IMG/VR virus record: IMGVR_UViG_3300006872_000016
Coordinates: 1-37,911 of that record
Source: a virus
Lineage: Duplodnaviria; Caudoviricetes
Reading direction: 5' to 3' (one strand)
DNA length: 37,911 bases
A program made the translations under genes and the position numbers. Below, in pieces: positions 3,196 to 27,680 of this stretch (positions within the stretch are counted from its first letter, which is position 1; the number at the start of each line of letters is the position of its first letter). The notes under the pieces were generated by a model. That model was not told the origin of the DNA. It worked only from the letters and a program-made list of their open reading frames with translations, and searched no databases.

Positions 3196-3648
3196 GTGCA
3201 GCTGTCGCCACACTTCCACCTATCCGAGTTCGAAGTTAGCCAAACCGCGGCGCGGCTCGGGATCCACAACGCGGCACCGCCTGCCGTGGTCGACAACCTG
3301 CGGCGCCTGGCCGAGGCGCTCGAGCGCGTGCGCGCGCACCTGGGCACGCCGATCACCATCACCAGCGGCTACCGTTCGCCAACGCTGAACCGGGCGATCC
3401 AGGGCTCGGCCAAGAACAGCGCCCACCAGTACGGGCTAGCGGCCGATCTCGTGGCGCCGCGGTTCGGCCCGCCGCTCGCGGTGGCGCGCGCGATCGTCGA
3501 GTCGGGCGTCGAGTTCGACCAGCTGATCTACGAGTTCGGATCCTGGGTGCACTTCGCCATCCCGGCCGAGCTCAAGGCGCCGCGGCGCGCGCTGCTCACC
3601 ATCGACCGCAACGGCACCCGGCTGGGGATCGAGGGCGTGAAGTGCTGA
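3196..3648 (+). CDS. endolysin, peptidase M15A family
   Basis: LSPHFHLSEF, ITSGYRS, SAH..G.AAD and WVH zinc-peptidase motifs. Confidence 0.9.
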   Translation: MQLSPHFHLSEFEVSQTAARLGIHNAAPPAVVDNLRRLAEALERVRAHLGTPITITSGYRSPTLNRAIQGSAKNSAHQYGLAADLVAPRFGPPLAVARAIVESGVEFDQLIYEFGSWVHFAIPAELKAPRRALLTIDRNGTRLGIEGVKC

Positions 3649-8563: not shown

Positions 8564-8964
8564 GTCGGCGGCGCCTCGCCGCGCAGCTCGCCCGCCAGCG
8601 CGCGTACGCCGTCGGACATTCCCGCCAGCATGGCCGCGGCGCGCTCGAGCAGCTCGGCGGTGCCGGCGAGCTCGGCCGCGGTCTGGGCGGCCGGCGCGCG
8701 CTGCGCCACCATCGCAAGCGGCACCACGGCGAACGAGAGCCGCGGATCGACGACGGGCGAGCGCACGGCCCACGCGTCGAGATTGCGGCGCGCCTGGTCT
8801 TGCGAGCTCGCGAGCGTGGCGAGCAGGAGGTCGCCGCGGTTGCTGATCGCGACCCATGCCAGCTGTACGGTCGAGAAGTCTCCCTCGCGCTGCGCGCGCT
8901 CGAGCAGCGACTCGGGGAGCGGTGCGGGCTCGGGGTGGTGCCCGTTCAGTATGACGCCGGTCAT
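8560..8964 (-). CDS. hypothetical protein
   Basis: ATGA-coupled start with GGAGGGAG SD. Confidence 0.65.
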   Translation of the reverse strand: MTGVILNGHHPEPAPLPESLLERAQREGDFSTVQLAWVAISNRGDLLLATLASSQDQARRNLDAWAVRSPVVDPRLSFAVVPLAMVAQRAPAAQTAAELAGTAELLERAAAMLAGMSDGVRALAGELRGEAPPT

Positions 8965-9359
8965 GCTTGCTCCCTCCCTTCTACGCCGCGCGCCTCGCGC
9001 TCGAGCGTGCGGGCGTGCAGTTGCTCGAGCGCCCACTCGACGTGCGCGAGCGCCCGATCGTTCTCCTTGCATGGGTACGGCCCCGCCTGGAAGCAGCGCA
9101 GCCGGTCGGCCACGATGGCGAGCAGCGCCTCATTCGTCACGCCGTTGACGCCGTTTTCCGGCACGCCGCCGCACTGGAACAAGATCGCCGTGTCGCCGTC
9201 CGCCGTGATTGCGATCGCGTCGCCTACGTCCGGGTGCCTGTGAGGCTCTCGAATCGCTATGCGGTAAAGGTGTGGCGCGCCCCCCGGGCCCAATTCCCCG
9301 GCGCGGATGGTCGGCGCCAGCGCCTCGAGCCTGTGCTTGTGTTCTGTGATCTCTCTCAT
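8961..9359 (-). CDS. tad1: Tad1-family anti-defence nucleotide sponge
   Basis: APHLY...ILFQCGGVPENGVNGVTNEALLAIVADRLRCFQAGPYPCKENDRAL..VE.AL..L..RT..REARGVEG matches the Tad1 signature as I recall it. Confidence 0.85.
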   Translation of the reverse strand: MREITEHKHRLEALAPTIRAGELGPGGAPHLYRIAIREPHRHPDVGDAIAITADGDTAILFQCGGVPENGVNGVTNEALLAIVADRLRCFQAGPYPCKENDRALAHVEWALEQLHARTLEREARGVEGREQA

Positions 9360-9910
9360 GTCGTCGATCTCCGTTGCTTGGTTGGAATCGGGGGAGCCGC
9401 GGCGAGGAGGGCGCGCGCAGCACTCAAGGCGGTGCGTGCGGCCTCTGGCGCGGGGCGTGGCGCCGGCGCCGGCGTTGGGGCCGTGCGCTGGGGTGGGTCG
9501 AGCTCGAGCTCGAAGCCTGGGGCCGCGGAGAGGGCCGCAGCTGCCGCCGCGGCCGCGACCGGCACCTCGGGGCGCCGCGCGTCGCGCGTGCTCGAGGCGC
9601 GCGGCGCGCGCTTCTCCATGTCCCGGGCCAGGGCGCACCATCGCGCCCACTTCGCCGGGTTGTGGAAACGGCCGTCGCCAGGTGCGTCGAGCGGCGCCTC
9701 GCCCTTGATGAAATTGATCAGGGCGGTCGACCAGTCCACATAGAGCGCCGGCCGGCCCTCCTCGTCGCGGCGCTTGTGGTAGGCGATGAACTCGGCGCCG
9801 AGCACGTCGGCCAGGTGGTATAGCCCGTAGCGGGTGGCGGTGAACTCCCGCACGCGCTCGCGCACGACGAACCCGTCGGGCATTCGTGAGCGGCGCGCGC
9901 GGGCAGCCAT
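9356..9910 (-). CDS. possible replication protein with DnaT-like helical domain
   Basis: MPDGF...EFIAYH...YVDWSTALINFI resembles the P..F / F..Y / DW...F..W pattern of phage replication initiator C-domains; Pro/Ala tail. Confidence 0.45.
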   Translation of the reverse strand: MAARARRSRMPDGFVVRERVREFTATRYGLYHLADVLGAEFIAYHKRRDEEGRPALYVDWSTALINFIKGEAPLDAPGDGRFHNPAKWARWCALARDMEKRAPRASSTRDARRPEVPVAAAAAAAALSAAPGFELELDPPQRTAPTPAPAPRPAPEAARTALSAARALLAAAPPIPTKQRRSTT

Positions 9911-10737
9911 TACGCCGCGTCCGCCTTGCCGTCGTCGTCGGCCGCCGGCGGCGGGCCGTCGGCGATGATGCGGCGATCGTCCGGGCTCAACGATTCGTTG
10001 AGCGCGGCGGCCGTGGGCGTCCACCCGCCGAAGTCCATATAGGCCGCCGGAATCCCCTCGAGCTTGCCGCCGTGGTCGTACTTCGCGGCGTATTCCGGGG
10101 CGGTGATCTGCCCGAGCGCGAGCAGGAACTCATCGCGCCACAGCTCGATCGGGATTTCCTCCGTCGGCGCCTGCAGGCCTTCGATAGCTTCGACGGCCTC
10201 GGCCAGGTCGAGCGCCACCTCGGCCGCAGCTGCGTCCTGCGAGGCCTTGAACTGCGCCACGATCGGCGACTCCCCGCGCAGCTGGTCGGCCAGCTCGGCC
10301 GCCGGCGACGGCCCGGTGTCATCGTCGGCAAAGAAATCGCCTTGCCGGTTGAGCTCCTCGAGGCTGGCGACGTTGCCGGCGGTCATCACGATCAGGAACG
10401 ATCCCTTATGCGTGAAGAAGTCGCGCGGCACCTGCGAGCGGACGGCGGCCAGCGTGAGCGTGACCACGTCGCCCTTGACGCTGATCCCGTTCTCGGTCGC
10501 CGCTACCGACGGCTGCCCGCTCGCGACGAACGCGTCGAACAGATTGCCGAGGCGGCGGGCGAGCTCGGTCTCTGTCTTGATCGCCCAGGCATCGATCAAT
10601 CCCGTCATGCGGTCGCGCTCCTCCTCGCCGAGCACGAGCCACACGTCTTGCATTTGCTTGCACGCGTCGACCGCCCCGGAGAACAGCAGATCGCGGATCT
10701 TGGTCCCTCTCACTAACTCTCTAACGTCTTGGGCCAT
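9910..10737 (-). CDS. hypothetical acidic protein (275 aa)
   Basis: AGGAGGT SD, protein-like ORF, TAATG overlap with the next gene. Confidence 0.7.
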   Translation of the reverse strand: MAQDVRELVRGTKIRDLLFSGAVDACKQMQDVWLVLGEEERDRMTGLIDAWAIKTETELARRLGNLFDAFVASGQPSVAATENGISVKGDVVTLTLAAVRSQVPRDFFTHKGSFLIVMTAGNVASLEELNRQGDFFADDDTGPSPAAELADQLRGESPIVAQFKASQDAAAAEVALDLAEAVEAIEGLQAPTEEIPIELWRDEFLLALGQITAPEYAAKYDHGGKLEGIPAAYMDFGGWTPTAAALNESLSPDDRRIIADGPPPAADDDGKADAA

Positions 10738-12153: not shown

Positions 12154-12491
12154 GCTGTCGCGGTCTCCCATAGTGCCGCCCCTTTCCCCTGGAAGGCCGA
12201 GGCCTCGAGCCGGGTACTAGGCGATCCCCTGTTTTCCGTTTCCAGGGTCCGGGGCGATAGGCGGTCGATCGTTGCCCGGTTGGTTGTCCGTCCTTGTTGC
12301 GCGCTTTCCTTCCAGACAGCGACGCGCCGCGCTTCACTAGCTTTCGAGTGGAGATCGACCGGATCGGGATTGACAGGGCGGGAGCGTGCGAACCATGATC
12401 GAGGTCCGCGCCGTCTCGTGCTTCTTTCACGATTCGGTAACGCCCCGGCGAGGTGACACTCCCGGGGCGTTTTCATTTGTAGCCTACTCAA
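12150..12491 (-). CDS. possible hypothetical protein (113 aa)
   Basis: Fills the gap exactly, with 4-nt overlaps at both ends (TTGA, ATGA), but the sequence is not recognisable. Confidence 0.35.
   Translation of the reverse strand: MSRLQMKTPRECHLAGALPNRERSTRRRGPRSWFARSRPVNPDPVDLHSKASEARRVAVWKESAQQGRTTNRATIDRLSPRTLETENRGSPSTRLEASAFQGKGAALWETATA
12370..12399 (+). promoter_or_regulatory. sigma70-like promoter antisense to the left early operon
   Basis: TTGACA-N18-CATGAT. Confidence 0.55.
12405..12478 (+). ncRNA. putative ~70-nt antisense small RNA ending in an intrinsic terminator
   Basis: Follows the promoter; hairpin TCGTG-CTTCTTT-CACGA, then stem AACGCCCCGG/CCGGGGCGTT followed by TTCATTT. 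Confidence 0.5.
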
Positions 12492-14473: not shown

Positions 14474-14820
14474 ATCCATTTCGCGCGCTCCTGTGCGTTG
14501 AGCGCCGCGGCGATCGCCTTGATCTCCGCGGCGACTTTCGGGTCGATGGTCCGCGCCCGGTAGGGCGGGACGGTAGCCTTGAACCGGTACGGCGAGTGCG
14601 TGATCACCGCCGGCCGGCCTGCGAGATTCGCCTCGAGCTCGGCGCCGGCGAGGGTCTCGAAGTCGCCGGCCTGGTAGAGAATGCCGAGCGCGGCGTCGAG
14701 CTCGCCCGGGCCCTGCAGCTGTAGCTTGTACGGCCGCGGGTCGGCCTCGAAGCTCGCCGCACCATCGGTGCGGGCGAACATCGCGATCAGGTTGGTCGAT
14801 GTGTAGGTGATCACGTTCAC
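14470..14820 (-). CDS. hypothetical protein
   Basis: GGAGG SD and GTGA overlap. Confidence 0.6.
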   Translation of the reverse strand: MNVITYTSTNLIAMFARTDGAASFEADPRPYKLQLQGPGELDAALGILYQAGDFETLAGAELEANLAGRPAVITHSPYRFKATVPPYRARTIDPKVAAEIKAIAAALNAQERAKWI

Positions 14821-15401
14821 GCCTCCACCGCTTTCGGGAACACCCGGCCCGCGGCGTTGTATCCATAGCCGTCGTCGCCGATGAACTGCACCCGCGCCGC
14901 GGTCGGCGAGGGCTTCACCACCAGCCGATCCGAGAGCTTCGCGAGCGTCTGGTATATCTGCTCCTGCCAACACCAGTTGTTCGACCATCTGTCGCCGATC
15001 ATCACCATGGTCCCGGCTTTGCCGTTCCTGAACTGCTCGACGGTGCACACCTCGGCCGGCGCGTATTTCTTCGTGAGCTTGCCGATCGCCCGGACGATCA
15101 TCGCGTCCGAATAGCTCCGCTCGCAGAAGATGAAGTCGGCGCCGAAGCTCGCCCGCTCGCCGTCCACCATGTAGTAGTTGCTCCCCTTGTAATCCTTCAT
15201 CCCGTCGAAGTAGCTGCCGGCGAAGGTGTCGGCGATCGCTTCGACCTGGGCCCGATTCGGGCCGTCGAGCCAGCCGACCCGCACCGAGGCGCCGCCGCTG
15301 TAGGTGCTGGTCCGTACCGAAAACTTCACGTCGGGGAATGCTTCCTTGAGCGCCTTGCGGATGAGCCCGGCGGTCTCGGCGGGCTTGAAATACTTGGTCA
15401 T
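14817..15401 (-). CDS. LPD29-domain protein (first gene of the left early operon)
   Basis: ETA.LIRKALKEAFPDVKFSVR...YSGG.S..V.W.DGP...FDGM.DY...FGADFIF..R.YS; GGAG SD. Confidence 0.8.
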   Translation of the reverse strand: MTKYFKPAETAGLIRKALKEAFPDVKFSVRTSTYSGGASVRVGWLDGPNRAQVEAIADTFAGSYFDGMKDYKGSNYYMVDGERASFGADFIFCERSYSDAMIVRAIGKLTKKYAPAEVCTVEQFRNGKAGTMVMIGDRWSNNWCWQEQIYQTLAKLSDRLVVKPSPTAARVQFIGDDGYGYNAAGRVFPKAVEA

Positions 15402-15443
15402 TCGTCGGTCTCCAGTCGACGCGGGAGAATTCCCGCAGCGCCT

Positions 15444-15471
15444 ATTATCCACACTCCGAGCGGCCGCGCAA
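15444..15471 (-). promoter_or_regulatory. leftward early promoter
   Basis: TTGCGC-N16-GATAAT on the minus strand. Confidence 0.6.
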
Positions 15472-15472
15472 C

Positions 15473-15497
15473 TATTTCGCGAAAATATTTCGCAAAA
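15473..15497. promoter_or_regulatory. operator-like palindromic/tandem site between divergent promoters
   Basis: TATTTCGCGAAAA-TATTTCGCAAAA: perfect palindrome TTTCGCGAAA plus a 13-bp-period repeat in an AT-rich island. Confidence 0.6.
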
Positions 15498-15501
15498 GGT
15501 A

Positions 15502-15529
15502 TTGACGCCGGGCGCGCGGTCTGGATAAT
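15502..15529 (+). promoter_or_regulatory. rightward early promoter
   Basis: TTGACG-N16-GATAAT. Confidence 0.7.
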
Positions 15530-15627
15530 TGGCCTCGAAGGCAACGACATCCCTTTCTAGTCGGCATTGGCGGGCGTCGCGTGCGGCGCCCTGCAATGCG
15601 GATTCCCCGCAGACAGGAGACCGAGAT

Positions 15628-15939
15628 ATGAGAAAGAGCATCACCATTCAAACCGCGAAGGGCTGCGCATGGCGCGGCGTCTACCTCAACATCGCCGGCC
15701 GGCAGGCTTTCGGCGCGACTCTCGATCCGCACTACGGAGTGCGCCCCGCTTTGACTCTGGCGGTCCTCGGACGCAGCGCGCGCGTTCCTATGCCCTATGT
15801 TCCGTGGCGCTGGGTGGCGAAACATGGTGGCTACGGCTTGCCTCTCATGTGGTTGTATCGGCTTTCGCGCGCGTTCTGGCGTGGCGTAGACGGGCGCTAT
15901 GGCTGGGGGACGGCGGCGAGCCGCGGGCCGCAGTCATGA
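15628..15939 (+). CDS. hypothetical protein (first gene of the right early operon)
   Basis: AGGAG SD; ATGA overlap with erf. Confidence 0.65.
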   Translation: MRKSITIQTAKGCAWRGVYLNIAGRQAFGATLDPHYGVRPALTLAVLGRSARVPMPYVPWRWVAKHGGYGLPLMWLYRLSRAFWRGVDGRYGWGTAASRGPQS

Positions 15940-16895
15940 GCGAGATAATCGTTAAAGAGGCGATCCTGTCGGTGCGCGAGGAGGACGAGATCGCGCCGGC
16001 GGCCGTGGCGCCGCTGGTGGCGAGTGGAAAGCCGCGCGCGCGGGCCGACTCCGTCGTCGCACGCGCCTCGAGCGAGACCATGGGGATCGCGCTCCTGATC
16101 GAGAAGGCGATCGAGTCCGGCCGCCCCGTGGCCGAGCTCGTGCAGGCATTCGAGAAGGCGCTCGAGATCCAGGCGCGGCAGCAGTTCGCGCAGGCGATGC
16201 ACCAGTTCCGCGCCAGCATGCCGGCCGTGCCCAAGGCGCGATGGGCGAACATGGAGAAGCGCGACGGGAGCGGCGCGTGGGGCTTCGCCTATGCGCCGCT
16301 CGACGTGATCGAGGAGTACGCCCGCCCGGTGCTGGACGCGTGCGGCCTGTCCTACCGTTGGGTGCAGGAGCCGCCGCAGGGCGGGATCATCACCACGATC
16401 TGCATCGTGCGGCACGTCGGCGGGCATGAGGAGCGGACGCCCTACTACTCGCCGATCGGGGACAACAAGGCGATCTCGACCGCGCAAAATTGGGCGGTCG
16501 CTAACTCGTTCAACAAGCGGCAATCCCTGGTCGCCGCGCTCGGCATCGTCACGACCGACTATTTCGACGACGAGGAGGCGCTCGCGCGAGCTCGCGAGGC
16601 CAACAAGGGCGCAACCGCGAAGCAGATCCGCGACGAGGTGCAGGCGCCGCGCCGGCGGCCGGACGCGGAGCCGCCCCGCCAGGCGCCCGCCAGGCCGCCG
16701 GCCGCGCCACCACCTGCGGCGCCGCCTGGCGAGTTCGCCAGCGACCGCCAGGTCGAGAGCATCAAGCGCCGGGCCGACTACGCCGGGATCAGCGAGGCGG
16801 AGGTGTGCCGCCGCTTCGAGCTCGAGACCTTCGCCAAGATCCCGCGCGGCAAGGTCAACGCGATCTTGGCCTACCTTGAATCCCTCGCGGGTTAG
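15936..16895 (+). CDS. erf: ERF-family single-strand annealing protein
   Basis: F.YAPLD.I....RPVL...GL, RHVGGH, AQ......SF.KRQSL.AALGI. Confidence 0.85.
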   Translation: MSEIIVKEAILSVREEDEIAPAAVAPLVASGKPRARADSVVARASSETMGIALLIEKAIESGRPVAELVQAFEKALEIQARQQFAQAMHQFRASMPAVPKARWANMEKRDGSGAWGFAYAPLDVIEEYARPVLDACGLSYRWVQEPPQGGIITTICIVRHVGGHEERTPYYSPIGDNKAISTAQNWAVANSFNKRQSLVAALGIVTTDYFDDEEALARAREANKGATAKQIRDEVQAPRRRPDAEPPRQAPARPPAAPPPAAPPGEFASDRQVESIKRRADYAGISEAEVCRRFELETFAKIPRGKVNAILAYLESLAG

Positions 16896-16949
16896 TCCTA
16901 CGCTGTGTCGGTCGACGCCTACGCGTCGACCGGCTGGAGACCGACAGAC

Positions 16950-17588
16950 ATGCAACCTTTTCGCTTCGATCCGGAAGCTCACGCCTATTACCTAGGCGAC
17001 GAGCAGATCCCCGGAGTGACCGCCGTTCTTGCCCAGGTGGTGAGCTTCGATTTCGTCCGCGACGAGGTGCTCGACCGCAAGCGGGCGATCGGCAGCGCCT
17101 TGCACTCAGCGATCGAGCTCGACCGCATGGGCGTGCTCGATGAGGACAGCGTCGACCCGGCCGTGCGCCCCTACTTCGACGGCTGGCGCGCGTGGCTTGA
17201 TCATCAATCGTGCTTCACCGTCCGCGCCGGCGAGCAGCCGGTGTGCTCTCGTGTCTACCGCTACGGCTGCACGCCTGACGTGTGGGGCGAGCTACAGATC
17301 GGCGAGGTCGCGGTGCCGTTCGTCATGGAGCTCAAAAGCTCGGCCACCGTTCACCCGTCCGTCGGCCCGCAGACTGCGGCGCAAACGCGCGCGATCGCCG
17401 AAACCATCCACGGCGGCCGACGCGGGGCGGCCGATCTGTGGGTGTCGACCGTGCGCCGGTTCGTGCTGCAGCTGCTCCCGACCGGCAAGTATTCCCTTCG
17501 CGAGCTGACCGCCCGCGACGACTTCACTACCTTTCTGGCGCTGCTCACGGCTTACCGCTGGAAAAAGCGCCACAACATCGGCCAATAG
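16950..17588 (+). CDS. PD-(D/E)XK exonuclease (recombination partner of ERF)
   Basis: FDPEAH.Y...IPGVT, G.ALH..IE, E.PV...YGCTPD, ELKS, Q.AA. Confidence 0.85.
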   Translation: MQPFRFDPEAHAYYLGDEQIPGVTAVLAQVVSFDFVRDEVLDRKRAIGSALHSAIELDRMGVLDEDSVDPAVRPYFDGWRAWLDHQSCFTVRAGEQPVCSRVYRYGCTPDVWGELQIGEVAVPFVMELKSSATVHPSVGPQTAAQTRAIAETIHGGRRGAADLWVSTVRRFVLQLLPTGKYSLRELTARDDFTTFLALLTAYRWKKRHNIGQ

Positions 17589-17599
17589 GAGGCCTCCCC

Positions 17600-17911
17600 A
17601 TGTTCGACAAACCCGACGCCTCGGCGTCTGAATTGAGCAAGCGAGAAGTGCTCGAGCTCGTGCTCCTGCACGCTTACCTGACCGCGCCCGAGGTCGGGCC
17701 ATCGTTGCGGCGCTTCGAGTCGCGCGCCCTGGCCGCGTTCGATCTGGTGCTCGGCGCGCCGGAGCCGCCACCGGTCCCGCCACCAGCCGAGGAGGTGGTC
17801 GGCGCACTCACCGCGGAGCTCGAGGAGGCCGCGGCGATCGCGCGGCAGTACGAGCGGATGGCCGACGGCAAGATGCCGCGCGCCGTCGATGCGAAAGGGG
17901 GTGAGGCATGA
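17600..17911 (+). CDS. hypothetical protein
   Basis: AGGAGG SD; ATGA overlap downstream. Confidence 0.6.
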   Translation: MFDKPDASASELSKREVLELVLLHAYLTAPEVGPSLRRFESRALAAFDLVLGAPEPPPVPPPAEEVVGALTAELEEAAAIARQYERMADGKMPRAVDAKGGEA

Positions 17912-18771
17912 ACGGCACCAGCATGCAGCCGGCGGTCGCGCCGGCGCCCGACGCGGCCCAGCAGATCAAGCCGCATATCAACGCCGCGGCGCTCGAGTGG
18001 GTCGGCCGCGCCCGGCAGTGGGTCGAGCGCGCGAAGGCGGCCGGCCCCATCACCACGGCCGAGGAGCATGAGCGGGCGCTCACCGCGCGCAAGATGATCG
18101 GCGAGGGCGGCCGCCAGATCGAGACCATACGCAAAGAGCACACCGCGCCCTATCGCGCGGCGGTCGAGGCGGTCAATGACTTTTTCCGCGGCCCGGCCGA
18201 GGACGTCGCCAAGGCGGCGCAGATCCAGGGCGACCGGATCAAGGCGTTCGAGAAGGCGGAGGCGGAGCGCCGCCGGCTGGCCGAGGAGCAGGCCAGGCGG
18301 GAGCGCGAGGCGGAGGCGCGCCGGCTGCGCGAGGAGGAGGCCCGCATCGCCCGGGAGCGCGAGGCGGCGGAGCGCGAGGCGCTCGAGCGCGCCCAAGCTC
18401 TCGAGGCCGCCGGCCGCGTCGATGAGGCCGACGAGGTGCTCGAGGAGGCGCAGCAGCAGCTCGGCGAGCTCGAGGCCGCGCAGGCCGCGGTCGCCACGGA
18501 GGCGGAGCTCGTCGCCACGGCGCCCGTCGTCGCCGTCCCGCAGCTGTCCACCGGCGGGCTGCGCCGCACGACGCGCTACTCGGCCAAGGTCACCGATCTC
18601 CGCGCGCTGGTGCAGGCGTGGCTGGATCAGAAGGTGCCGGCCGACATGCTCGCCGGCGAGCGCGTGCTCGAGGCAATCACCAAGCAGGCAAGCGGCTACG
18701 CGCGGATGCAGCGCGAGGGCTTCGCCTTCCCCGGCTGCGAGCTCGTGGCCGAAACGAAGATCGAGGGCTGA
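17908..18771 (+). CDS. coiled-coil phage protein
   Basis: IE..RK..TAP......VND.F, a long E/A/R helix, and a C-terminal Y.A.VTD...PG.. pattern common in recombination modules. Confidence 0.75.
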   Translation: MNGTSMQPAVAPAPDAAQQIKPHINAAALEWVGRARQWVERAKAAGPITTAEEHERALTARKMIGEGGRQIETIRKEHTAPYRAAVEAVNDFFRGPAEDVAKAAQIQGDRIKAFEKAEAERRRLAEEQARREREAEARRLREEEARIAREREAAEREALERAQALEAAGRVDEADEVLEEAQQQLGELEAAQAAVATEAELVATAPVVAVPQLSTGGLRRTTRYSAKVTDLRALVQAWLDQKVPADMLAGERVLEAITKQASGYARMQREGFAFPGCELVAETKIEG

Positions 18772-18774
18772 CCC

Positions 18775-19566
18775 ATGCGACTGTTCCCCCTGGACACCGA
18801 AACAACCGCGGCCAGCCCCGGCGGCCGCATCGTCGAGATCGCGATCGGCCGCGTCGGCGCCAACGAGCCGGCGCCGTTCGTGCGCCGCGTGAATCCCGGC
18901 ATGCCGATCCCGGAGCCGGTCACCCGGATCCACGGCATCGCCGACGCGGACGTCGCCGACGCGCCCGGCACCCGCGAGGCGCTGCTCGCCGCGGTCGACT
19001 ACCTGATCGAGCAGGCGCCCGACGGGCTGCTTATCCACAATGCCGGCTTCGACTGCCGCGTCGTGCAGTGGGAGTGCGACCGCGTCGGCGTCGACTGGCC
19101 GCAGGAGATCCCGGTGTTCTGCACGCTCGAGCACGCGCAGGCGCGCGCCGAGACCAAGAACAACCGGCTCGAGACCCTGGCCGACCACTACGGGCTCGCG
19201 ACGCCCTGGCCGTCACACTCGGCGATGGGCGACTGCCACCTAGTGCAACAGTACGCCGAGCTCCTCGGCGTCGAGCGCGGCCAGCCGCGGCCCTGGCGCG
19301 AGTGGGTCGCGACCGCCCGCGGCGGGCGCTACTCGGCGCAGCTGCCGGAGGGCTTCGAGGCCTTCCCCGATCTGGTGGCGGCCGGCGGCCGGTTCTCGTT
19401 CGACTACCGCGACGAGCGCGGCAAGGAAACCCGGCGGACCATCATCCCGGCCGGCTGGGCGGACTGCGGCGGCTTCCTGAGCTTTCACGGCTTCTGTCTG
19501 CTCCGCAACGACATGCGCGAGTTCAGATCCGATCGCGTGGTTGCCGTTCAGTCGGTGGCGTTCTAG
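18775..19566 (+). CDS. DEDDh 3'-5' exonuclease fused to a C-terminal WYL domain
   Basis: LDTETT, IHGI, HNAGFD, CTL, HSAMGD, then FDYRDERGKETRRTIIP...GFCLLRNDMREFRSDRV. Confidence 0.88.
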   Translation: MRLFPLDTETTAASPGGRIVEIAIGRVGANEPAPFVRRVNPGMPIPEPVTRIHGIADADVADAPGTREALLAAVDYLIEQAPDGLLIHNAGFDCRVVQWECDRVGVDWPQEIPVFCTLEHAQARAETKNNRLETLADHYGLATPWPSHSAMGDCHLVQQYAELLGVERGQPRPWREWVATARGGRYSAQLPEGFEAFPDLVAAGGRFSFDYRDERGKETRRTIIPAGWADCGGFLSFHGFCLLRNDMREFRSDRVVAVQSVAF

Positions 19567-19569
19567 GCT
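19541..19569 (+). promoter_or_regulatory. promoter for the putative sRNA
   Basis: TTGCCG-N17-TAGGCT; the predicted +1 (~19576) coincides with the start of the stem. Confidence 0.6.
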
Positions 19570-19575
19570 ATGCGG

Positions 19576-19660
19576 CGCCCGACGGCCGGCCACCCTCCTC
19601 GGTGTCTCGGTCTCCAGCCTTCCGGCCGTCGGGCACTACTCCTTTCAGGAGTACTTCTCC
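19576..19660 (+). ncRNA. putative trans-acting anti-Shine-Dalgarno small RNA
   Basis: Perfect 13-bp stem (19577-19589/19622-19634) around a 32-nt pyrimidine-rich loop containing CTCCTC and TCTCGGTCTCCAGCC; second hairpin TACTCCT-TTC-AGGAGTA. Confidence 0.65.
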
Positions 19661-19661
19661 C

Positions 19662-19952
19662 ATGAGACATTCCCTCAAGACGATGATCGCGGCGCTGCTC
19701 GGCGCCGCTTCCGTGCAGCCTGTGATCGGGCCGACCCAAACCGCCACCCGCGCGCCGGTGCAGCAGCATCCGATCCAGACGCCGCCCGCGGACCGCGCCC
19801 CGAGCGGCCGCGCCGCCGACCGCCGGCGCCGCCAGGGTCGCGCCGGTGGCGGCGGCCCCTGGCACGCTCGCCACGGCGCCGAGATCGGCGACCCGCGGTG
19901 TGGGTGCTCGCAGTGCGTCCGCGCCAGGCGGGAGGCGCTGCATGCCAGGTAA
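19662..19952 (+). CDS. hypothetical protein with signal-like N-terminus and HxxH/CxCxxC tail
   Basis: AGGAG SD (inside a hairpin); MRHSLKTMIAALLGAA...HARH...CGCSQC. Confidence 0.55.
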   Translation: MRHSLKTMIAALLGAASVQPVIGPTQTATRAPVQQHPIQTPPADRAPSGRAADRRRRQGRAGGGGPWHARHGAEIGDPRCGCSQCVRARREALHAR

Positions 19953-20154
19953 CCCGGTCGCGGTCGCGCAGCGCGCCCAGCTGCGCGCCGAGCTCAAGCA
20001 GGCGATCCGCGACGCCTGCCGCTCGCGCAAGGATTCCCGCGCCCACTATGAGGCGGCGCTCGAGGAAACCATGGCCGAGCCGGCCGACACCTGGCCGTGG
20101 TGGCTGGAGTACTGGCGCGGCCAGTACCGATCGGTGCGGGTGCACGTGTCGTGA
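19942..20154 (+). CDS. hypothetical protein
   Basis: GGAGG SD; GTGA coupling to the next gene. Confidence 0.6.
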   Translation: MPGNPVAVAQRAQLRAELKQAIRDACRSRKDSRAHYEAALEETMAEPADTWPWWLEYWRGQYRSVRVHVS

Positions 20155-20354
20155 ACCGGCGCCGCGACGGCAAGAAGTACTCCCGGGCCGAGCGCCAGCT
20201 CCGCGCGCAGGCGCGCACCCTGGCCGAGTTCGTCGCCCGGTCCCGCCTGGTGCGCGAGCTCGGCGGCCGTCCGGCCGGCCACCCGCAGCGCGGCCGCCCC
20301 GTCCCGTGGGATCGGCTGATCGCCGAGTCCGGGCTCGAGAGGCGCCCCGAGTGA
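20151..20354 (+). CDS. hypothetical basic protein
   Basis: GTGA overlaps at both ends. Confidence 0.5.
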   Translation: MNRRRDGKKYSRAERQLRAQARTLAEFVARSRLVRELGGRPAGHPQRGRPVPWDRLIAESGLERRPE

Positions 20355-20689
20355 ACCGCCGATCGTTCCTGCGCTCGATGGTGGCGGCGCTCACCGTCGG
20401 CCCGCCGGCGGTCGCCGCTCTCGCCCGCGCCATCGACTTTTCGCCGGGCGAGCTCGACGCGATATGCGCCGGGATCACCGAAAGGATCGAGCGCCGCGCC
20501 ACGCCCGTCGGCTCCTGGGTGGTCGTGTACACCTTCGAGACGCCGATCGATTCTGCGTGCTACGCGGAGATTTTCGACGAGCAACCGACCGACGCGACGC
20601 TCGCCAAGCTGCGCCTGACAGCTGCGGCCGCATTCCAGCGTTACCAATTCATCGACCCGCCCGCGTTTCTCTCGAGGCCGCGAACGTGA
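20351..20689 (+). CDS. hypothetical protein with twin-arginine-like signal
   Basis: MNRRSFLRSMVAALTVGPPAVAALA; GTGA overlaps. Confidence 0.6.
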   Translation: MNRRSFLRSMVAALTVGPPAVAALARAIDFSPGELDAICAGITERIERRATPVGSWVVVYTFETPIDSACYAEIFDEQPTDATLAKLRLTAAAAFQRYQFIDPPAFLSRPRT

Positions 20690-20898
20690 AGCGCCGGTCC
20701 CGCGCCCGCCGCTGGCGTAGAAGCCGCCGGCCCCTGTGGCGGGTCTACCTCGATCCGCAGTACTGGCGCTCCCTCGCGGACTACGTGATCGGCGATCCGC
20801 TCGAGCTCGAGCCTGGCGAGGCGGACGTCGCGCCGACGTTCACCGGCGAGATCGGCGTGTTCCGCGGCTTTCGCTTCCGCCCCCTCGAAAGGGGGTAA
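20686..20898 (+). CDS. hypothetical protein with capsid-like GEIG..GFRF motif
   Basis: GTGA overlap; last gene before the late promoter. Confidence 0.5.
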   Translation: MKRRSRARRWRRSRRPLWRVYLDPQYWRSLADYVIGDPLELEPGEADVAPTFTGEIGVFRGFRFRPLERG

Positions 20899-26566: not shown

Positions 26567-26588
26567 TCTGACCCCTGGAGACCGCCCT

Positions 26589-27568: not shown

Positions 27569-27680
27569 TTGTTTCTCCTGGCTCAGCTGTTCTAGGATTG
27601 CGCCCAGCGGATAACCGGAAACGGCCCGCGACGCTACCGCCCTTCGCGCGACGGCCCGGGACACCGGATAACCGACAAGC
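27569..27680 (+). promoter_or_regulatory. capsid leader: promoter-like site and repeated motifs
   Basis: TTGTTT-N18-TAGGAT; CGGATAACCG at 27608 and 27665; ACGGCCCG at 27621 and 27651. Confidence 0.5.

Follow-up and report, generated by a model that had tools for sequence, protein, structure and literature searches.

The c4 RNA of phages P1 and P7 and the CI RNA of phage P4 are both thought to be cut from the leader of an operon. According to PMC12197685, c4 (RF01695) is a phage-encoded, short and structured RNA that acts in trans on the phage's own mRNA, where its loops pair around the ribosome-binding site (RBS). Here we describe an element of similar kind in a single IMG/VR record of an uncultured freshwater virus (IMGVR_UViG_3300006872_000016), analysed over its full length of 37,911 bases (the window; about 69% G+C, 95% complete by CheckV). 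The element lies at 19577–19634, and its loop is complementary to the RBS of several genes of the same genome. It appears to be a real phage RNA element that is in no catalogue, and the sequence comparisons give good support to a pairing with RBS tags of the phage. We propose that it is an anti-RBS RNA, which would pair with the GGAGACC-tagged RBS of the phage's own first early genes and likely damp their translation, and we give this reading a probability of about 0.55.

The closest described systems differ from this locus in several respects. In a temperate phage, c4 acts on a single antirepressor transcript, whereas here one seed matches the entry genes of several separate operons; the element has no match to RF01695 (in the window at the gathering score, and in 19450–19750 at E-values up to 10), and no lysogeny genes were found. 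The Burkholderia double-hairpin 'toxic' small RNAs (sRNAs) are thought to damp host translation. Betaproteobacterial RNAs of this type (RF02278; ncS03, ncS05, ncS27 and ncS62) are also short, with a CU-rich unpaired stretch complementary to the RBS, and overexpression of ncS27 slows growth (PMC5688073). They are chromosomal and have two hairpins and a U-tract terminator, whereas the element forms a three-way junction without a terminator and has extended matches to phage genes; the RF02278 covariance model gave no match at E-values up to 10. The Cuckoo or alpha-r14 sRNAs (NfeR1, CcsR) likewise combine variable stems with a fixed loop against the Shine-Dalgarno (SD) sequence, but carry two to four adjacent hairpins, each with CCUCCUCCC (PMC4615179), in place of the one conserved loop GGUCUCCAGCC found here. 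The start-associated sequences (SAS) of Cluster K mycobacteriophages are, as in our case, a phage-private extended RBS tag common to unrelated genes; that tag is 13 bp long and has 11–19 copies, its authors left open whether RNA or protein binds it, and that paper identifies no partner (PMC3203893). In the window, by contrast, five tagged genes share the genome with a complementary structured element. IsrK of Gifsy-1 is a phage RNA that is both sRNA and mRNA leader (PMC12197685), but it activates its own downstream orf45/anrP, and no homology to IsrK was found. A search of the literature accessible without subscription returned no phage RNA with an anti-SD seed for the first genes of several of its own operons, and the 11-nt core described below had no match in the available passages and six supplementary files of PMC10690425.

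An earlier note on this DNA had described, from the letters alone, a perfect 13-bp stem closing a 32-nt loop, and this stem was found: 13 Watson-Crick pairs join 19577–19589 with 19622–19634 (stem P1; Table 1). For the 140 nt around it the predicted folding energy is −58.6 kcal/mol (z −3.8), and none of 200 shuffles was as stable. The seed, which the note had taken to be an unpaired 15-mer, is not fully open in the predicted fold, where its core GGUCUCC(A/C)GCC forms a weak 3-bp GGU/GCC hairpin that displays CUCC(A/C). The promoter named in the note is also supported; the pattern TTGCnn-N16-18-TAnnnT occurs in the window only at 19541. It lies within the last codons of the DnaQ-WYL gene, the TAG of the predicted −10 hexamer being the stop codon of that gene, and in every lineage the predicted −35 hexamer falls on a Val codon that is seldom used (GTT makes up 43 of the 752 Val codons within gene bodies). 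With the usual spacing of sigma70 start sites, the transcript would begin at about 19575–19577, and this promoter of its own probably drives the element, which would form the 5′ end of the 19662–20898 operon transcript.

Downstream of P1, no terminator-like site was found on the plus strand at 19577–19660, and no U-tract in the homologues. Hairpin P3 covers the SD of the next open reading frame (ORF) in every homologue, with a differing sequence in L068 and in L069–L073 (loci described below), and homologous small ORFs come after it in the relatives. Because there is no U-tract terminator and P3 hides the next SD, the element is best read as an operon leader. The free sRNA of 60–85 nt with a defined end, as first supposed, is not supported: the RNA runs into the SD-hiding hairpin, and a discrete 3′ end, if any, would come from termination of untranslated RNA or from trimming. 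In every lineage, the product of the small ORF behind P3 (window 19662–19952; L068 8683; L069 9356; L070 10382) begins with a hydrophobic N-terminus and is rich in Arg towards its C-terminus.

Homologues were sought by a metagenome scan with an alignment of the WYL C-terminus, a search blind to the RNA, and seven loci were obtained (L067–L073). In all seven, found by the upstream protein alone, a hairpin stands directly after the stop codon. Protein identity separates three lineages, those of the window and L067 (93%), of L068 (56%) and of L069–L073 (44%). The core, GGTCTCCAGCC, is identical in six of the seven loci and has one A>C change in L069; CUCC(A/C) is predicted unpaired in the window and L067–L069, UCU in L070–L072 and UCC in L073. 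The promoter pattern is syntenic in L069–L071, and L068 has TAGCCG-17-TAGACT. Among the window, L067 and L068, 3 of 18 pairs of P1 are changed on both sides and 1 of 18 on one side; 96% of the cells pair, against 35–59% in slid controls, and 18 of 500 shuffles were as good, with three sequences only in this comparison. Over 261 bases, four DNA runs from four studies show 15 substitutions and a single deletion. No substitution falls within 19607–19619 (a C>T change at 19606 touches the 5′ edge of the seed), the changes in the stems keep or restore pairs, and the outer pairs of P1 are restored in all four. One-sided changes, of the G:U type, favour the plus strand. A conserved seed, predicted to be accessible and lying inside a covarying fold, is one mark of a trans-acting base-pairing sRNA and is present here.

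Stem P2 is replaced, by a shorter hairpin in L068 and by a 6-bp stem with an AACCCUG loop in L069–L073, so its CUCCUC loop lies outside the conserved design; the mini-hairpin of the earlier note exists in the window, but as a second anti-SD loop it is not conserved in L068–L073. A covariance model of three sequences (R1) recovered its training set only, with the syntenic element of L073 at an E-value of 0.53 with filters off. Since the model missed L069–L073, the case for their homology is built on their synteny, the shared architecture and the 11-nt core. An alignment of all six sequences with MAFFT and RNAalifold misaligned the stems and was not used. Neither the exonuclease-WYL protein nor alignments made from it led to an element-bearing locus when the proteins of IMG/VR were scanned, and DNA pattern scans of IMG/VR returned 13 and 81 loci, none of them homologous (none of the 81 with a closing stem of more than 8 Watson-Crick pairs). 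In 26 capsid-related records, BLAST detected no copy of the element. The search for a known family, suggested in the note, matched none: Rfam had no match at the gathering score over the window, and 19450–19750 gave only two chance miRNA matches (E 1–1.4). The DnaQ-WYL gene stands directly upstream of the element in all seven homologous loci, and its full-length relatives are scarce, about a dozen of 98 matches covering at least 96% of the protein.

The complement of the loop has five exact matches of at least 10 nt outside the loop, four of which are at RBS, and three of these four sit on first genes behind predicted promoters. The exonuclease gene has its own predicted promoter (syntenic counterpart in L068, TTGAAA-17-TACGCT), so that each of the three best early targets is an entry gene. 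All six RBS matches cited in the earlier note are in the sequence and, as a set, exceed chance with the SD core fixed; that of Tad1 is weak, falling outside the top 9 of 50 with accessibility counted. The fourth long match precedes a gene labelled as a putative scaffold from its position ahead of the capsid gene. Of the eight copies of GGAGACC outside the loop, five are at RBS (binomial 3e-9, with SD-likeness left uncorrected), whereas the word GGAGACCG itself is only mildly over-represented (8 seen against 3.2 expected; 1 of 100 shuffles reached 8).

The extension of the matches beyond the SD core was evaluated with two nulls, both of which hold fixed the seventh base, which is partly background. 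With GGTCTCC fixed and 2000 randomisations of the flanks, the five best matches among the 50 window start regions added up to 53, against 38.8 ± 3.9 (p 0.0015), and L068 gave p 0.002 under the same constraint. With empirical flanks, taken from 38 other GAGACC sites and 116 GGAG-type RBS, the 8-nt 5′ extension had p 7e-4 and the 10-nt 3′ extension p 2e-4 (joint, about 1e-6). Gene starts were called with a custom caller favouring GGAG starts, with three added by hand (window 15628 and the first leftward genes of L069 and L070); one tagged gene of L068 (2816–2823) was missed by it. Two G:U-rich sites, 3620–3634 on the plus strand (15 bp, three G:U) and one upstream of 32747 (plus), are not kept in the relatives and were treated as chance. 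These sites, 14–15 nt long, precede late genes and rank 1 and 4 of 50.

Table 1. Features of the RNA element, its predicted targets and the early regulatory region in window coordinates (ranks are among 50 start regions)
Feature	Position	Strand	Remarks
Predicted sigma70-type promoter TTGCCG-17-TAGGCT	19541..19569	+	
P1 closing stem	19577..19634	+	13 bp; relatives extend outward to 19572/19639
P2 mini-hairpin CACC/GGTG, CUCCUC loop	19591..19604	+	variable, sequence not conserved
Seed UCUCGGUCUCCAGCC	19605..19619	+	conserved core GGUCUCC(A/C)GCC at 19609-19619
P3 hairpin	19637..19653	+	pairs SD AGGAG (19647-19651) of downstream gene
Predicted target: exonuclease gene RBS (gene start 16950)	16932..16944	+	13/13
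Predicted target: RBS of first rightward gene (15628-15939)	15616..15626	+	11/11; rank 2/50
Predicted target: RBS of first leftward gene (LPD29, start 15401)	15405..15415	minus	11/11; rank 5/50
Predicted target: putative scaffold gene RBS (gene 26589)	26575..26584	+	10/10
Predicted weaker target: DNA methyltransferase RBS (start 12153)	12156..12168	minus	12/13; 8 exact at 12161-12168; rank 7/50
Weak possible target: Tad1 homologue RBS, GGAGATCGA	9364..9372	minus	9 bp, one G:U
Predicted internal promoter TTGAAT-17-TACGCT	16876..16904	+	makes exonuclease a first gene
DnaQ-like 3'-5' exonuclease fused to WYL domain	18775..19566	+	RNase_T and WYL Pfam matches
ORF, 96 aa, without family match	19662..19952	+	first of overlapping run to 20898
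Divergent early promoters	15444..15529		minus TTGCGC-16-GATAAT; plus TTGACG-16-GATAAT
Palindrome TTTCGCGAAA	15475..15484		with near copy, between divergent early promoters
Cro-like helix-turn-helix protein, 65 aa	13495..13692	minus	HTH_3 above cut-off; phrog_2328 repressor E 4e-5

Among the relatives, L068 retains the same 13 nt at the exonuclease gene, where the intergenic stretch has hardly changed and the protein is 62% identical, and has GGAGACC on its first leftward gene. In L069–L071, TGGAGACC stands on both first genes, which lack BLAST similarity to those of the window; the tag (T)GGAGACC thus marks both first genes in a lineage whose first genes are unrelated to the window's. With accessibility counted, the first leftward gene ranks 2/17, 1/26, 2/26 and 1/20 in L068–L071, respectively. 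GGAGACC precedes the putative scaffold homologue in L001, L002, L018, L019, L021, L022 and L037 and is absent in nine more distant records; three further records had no usable start. In the window, L068 and L070, it accounts for 9 of 49 GGAG-type RBS, against 3 of 134 in nine records in which the element was not found (Fisher 4e-4), a count that leaves out L069 and L071, near copies of L070, and G008, G022, L032 and L046, likely redundant. The window seed was better than 300 shuffled seeds on 5/5 start sets of element-bearing phages (z −2.1 to −4.3) and on 0/5 sets from other records (z −0.5 to +1.4). The stretch between the ERF and exonuclease genes (window 16896–16949, plus; L068 5829–5885) is almost identical in the two phages, while the flanking proteins are 49–62% identical. 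A promoter-like signal and a 12-bp hairpin lie in this stretch, and an alternative pairing there, of TGTCGGTC with GACCGACA, would hide the RBS.

Several observations weigh against the proposed pairing. The comparison comprises only three independent lineages, and the first rightward gene of L068 has an RBS without the tag. The co-variation of loop and RBS expected by the earlier note was looked for and not seen: the seed hardly varies across the phages compared and none prefers its own phage, the window seed being as good as or better than the own seeds on the start regions of L069–L071, and the variant seed of L069 was no better than shuffled seeds on L069 genes (p 0.40). In L069–L071 the exact matches are 7–8 nt long, with p 0.11–0.69 once GGAGAC is fixed. 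GAGACG is depleted in the window (6 against 44 GAGACC), which inflates the seventh base, and the relatives used as controls may have other hosts, are in part incomplete, and may contain a diverged element that escaped notice, as the covariance model overlooked even L069–L073. The helix reaches 19572 in L067, L068 and the four DNA runs, only 2 nt past the −10 hexamer. As this position is too near the −10 hexamer for transcription from the 19541 promoter, read-through RNA may also form the outer helix; these outer pairs partly overlap P3, and are hence weak evidence against a promoter-born RNA. The contigs of the RNA runs X17–X20 are short and cover the element and the rest of the region alike thinly, speaking neither for nor against expression. 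Finally, a late structural target such as the scaffold gene fits a role in early shut-off poorly. Of the notion that one RNA acts on both early operons, the conserved plus-strand structure, the promoter-like signal and the non-random RBS complementarity stand, while repression itself is a prediction.

Some of these observations would suit an anti-SD RNA aimed at the host, with a seed tuned to host GGAGAC-type RBS and damping host translation, and with the strong phage RBS merely copying the host style; CTGGAGACCGA may be simply the ordinary RBS consensus of the host. The core matches of only 7–8 nt in L069–L071, the lack of seed-target covariation, a core fixed across lineages while the phage flanks drift, the GGAGAC at some RBS of relatives without the element, and tags on just those genes expected to have strong RBS all agree with this. 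We nevertheless consider it unlikely, since both the window and L068 show an extension past the core that is far above chance, unless the host consensus is equally long, and a phage would be expected to shun perfect matches on its own first genes, not to keep them. Another reading is that the element works in cis only, as a leader between cistrons or a site of processing, with the long stem serving for RNase III-type cleavage or for stabilisation and P3 gating the next gene; the loop would be conserved for its fold or for a protein, and the symmetry of GGAG hairpins would produce the RBS matches as a side effect. This would account for the missing terminator, for the conserved hiding of the next SD by P3, for a helix to 19572 that could form only in read-through RNA, and for a core that is itself predicted as a small hairpin. 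We strongly doubt this explanation, which leaves both the exact complementarity of 10–13 nt at four RBS on both strands and the tag enrichment in element-bearing phages without a cause; its outer pairs, as noted, weigh little against the promoter. The minus strand folds about as stably (the window and L068 favouring it, L067 and L069–L073 the plus strand). The GGCUGGAGACCGAGA that it would display could be an RBS mimic sponging a repressor or a host sRNA, or the motif could be the DNA site of a phage protein. This is highly improbable, given that one-sided changes give G:U pairs on the plus strand, that the conserved promoter faces the plus direction, and that all tagged sites are in SD position and gene-sense orientation, neither of which a DNA operator would need. 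The core contains what we take to be a BsaI-type word, which leaves the SD position of the motif unexplained. A CsrA/RsmA site was also considered and rejected, as the plus-strand RNA has no GGA loop of the consensus kind.

A further possibility, raised by the earlier note, is a silencer for immunity or a carrier state, in which a constitutive RNA holds off the whole lytic programme in place of a CI protein. The predicted targets are indeed the entry genes of three transcription units together with a conserved late gene, the RNA has a predicted host-type promoter of its own, a CI of the S24 type was not found, and c4 of phages P1 and P7 offers a precedent (PMC12197685). However, six-frame searches found no tyrosine integrase, serine integrase or resolvase, ParA or S24 repressor domain in the 95%-complete record, which lacks only about 350 bases at the join of its ends (by comparison with the relative L059). 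A scan of GTDB with the WYL query gave six weak WYL matches, none with the element, and neither a host nor a prophage copy. A seed that is invariant across lineages does not give the specificity of heteroimmunity, and a Cro-like helix-turn-helix (HTH) gene with operator-like palindromes points to a protein regulator. We therefore regard the replacement of CI by this RNA as distinctly improbable. No antirepressor annotation is present among the 57 ORFs of the window.

Under the proposed anti-RBS reading, host sigma70 would start the RNA at about 19575–19577, and read-through from the upstream operon could also supply it. Stem P1, which covaries, would close a junction presenting CUCCA in the weak 3-bp hairpin, and P3 would hide the next SD, so that the untranslated RNA is terminated or trimmed to the P1–P3 module. 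The outcome may be a stable RNA of about 60–80 nt, by analogy with phage RNAs derived from leaders. CUCCA is predicted to kiss UGGAG or GGAG of a target, and the pairing to spread to 10–13 bp over the SD. As the RNA builds up, translation of the entry genes of the leftward, rightward and exonuclease promoters would drop, and that of overlapping downstream genes in part alongside. The result would be a delayed negative feedback on the early programme, beside the Cro-like protein. The conserved site at the scaffold gene suggests that the RNA could also set the level or timing of head assembly. Taken further, one leader-derived RNA could be the master switch of a non-integrating HTVC010P-like phage, silencing all GGAGACC-tagged entry RBS and the scaffold at once, so that a carrier state is held and relatives are excluded with no CI protein; we find this improbable.

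It is largely open how phages without CI, anti-sigma factors or an RNA polymerase of their own lower their early genes. If the proposal is correct, one short seed reading a tag shared by several operon-entry RBS would be a translational switch at the level of a regulon, and tags that are private to a phage and tied to its gene starts, as the SAS of Cluster K are, would have a testable account. On the other hand, the principle that a phage RNA exerts antisense control at an RBS is already known from c4.

The two early operons diverge. The leftward one starts at 15401 and comprises LPD29, HTH, two methyltransferase, Tad1 and HNH genes, and the rightward one starts at 15628 and comprises ERF, exonuclease and DnaQ-WYL genes. 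Palindromes similar to that between the divergent promoters occur at the syntenic position in L068, L069 and L071. As the HTH gene is kept in L068–L070 (54–59% protein identity) and palindromes lie between the divergent promoters, a protein regulator is likely; the Cro-like protein is a candidate regulator of these promoters, and the TTTC(G/C)(C/G)GAAA-type palindromes are its candidate operators. Their central bases differ by lineage (window 15444–15529; L068 4219; L069 5781; L071 1615). The start region of the HTH gene is itself a predicted target of the seed, at rank 3/26 in L069 (4628–4843, minus) and 1/26 in L070 (5635–5847, minus). There the variant loop CUCCCG of L069 matches CGGGAG, a single hint of covariation, with none in the window. 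The translational coupling invoked in the earlier note, by which a block of the first RBS would be polar, is in line with many overlaps of 1–4 nt, but gaps of 54–107 nt are also present between operon genes, and the exonuclease has its own predicted promoter. Of the leftward junctions listed, 7/15 overlap by 1–10 nt (two entries being distorted by a C5-methylase start called too long), and 6/10 rightward junctions overlap likewise, except that one does so by 11 nt. Polarity would thus be partial.

The capsid protein of the window is 41–43% identical to that of Pelagibacter phage HTVC010P and its closest kin, and its portal protein, terminase and tubular tail proteins are those expected of a podovirus. 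The DNA occurs in metagenomes from freshwater, drinking water, biofilter and sludge. A search for the host's name through capsid and cluster look-ups gave as sole match a metagenome-assembled genome labelled 'Gammaproteobacteria bacterium' (68% identity), and blastn of 14800–20000 against GenBank phages gave no match. ESM Atlas returned no function for the 275-aa protein at 9910–10737. The homologue (8961–9359, minus) of the Thoeris anti-defence protein Tad1 matches PDB 8kbb at an E-value of 1e-14. Some words are avoided genome-wide on both strands, namely AGCGCT (2 against 42 expected), AGATCT (0 against 25) and TGGCCA (2 against 20), and, more mildly, CGTCTC/GAGACG (6 against 17). The avoided words are probably host restriction sites, and the phage carries two DNA methyltransferase genes. 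In addition, a promoter-like TTGTTT-18-TAGGAT (27569–27600, plus) lies in the 190-nt gap before the capsid gene, a possible late leader, and blastn shows conserved DNA around 27603 in both L001 and L002.

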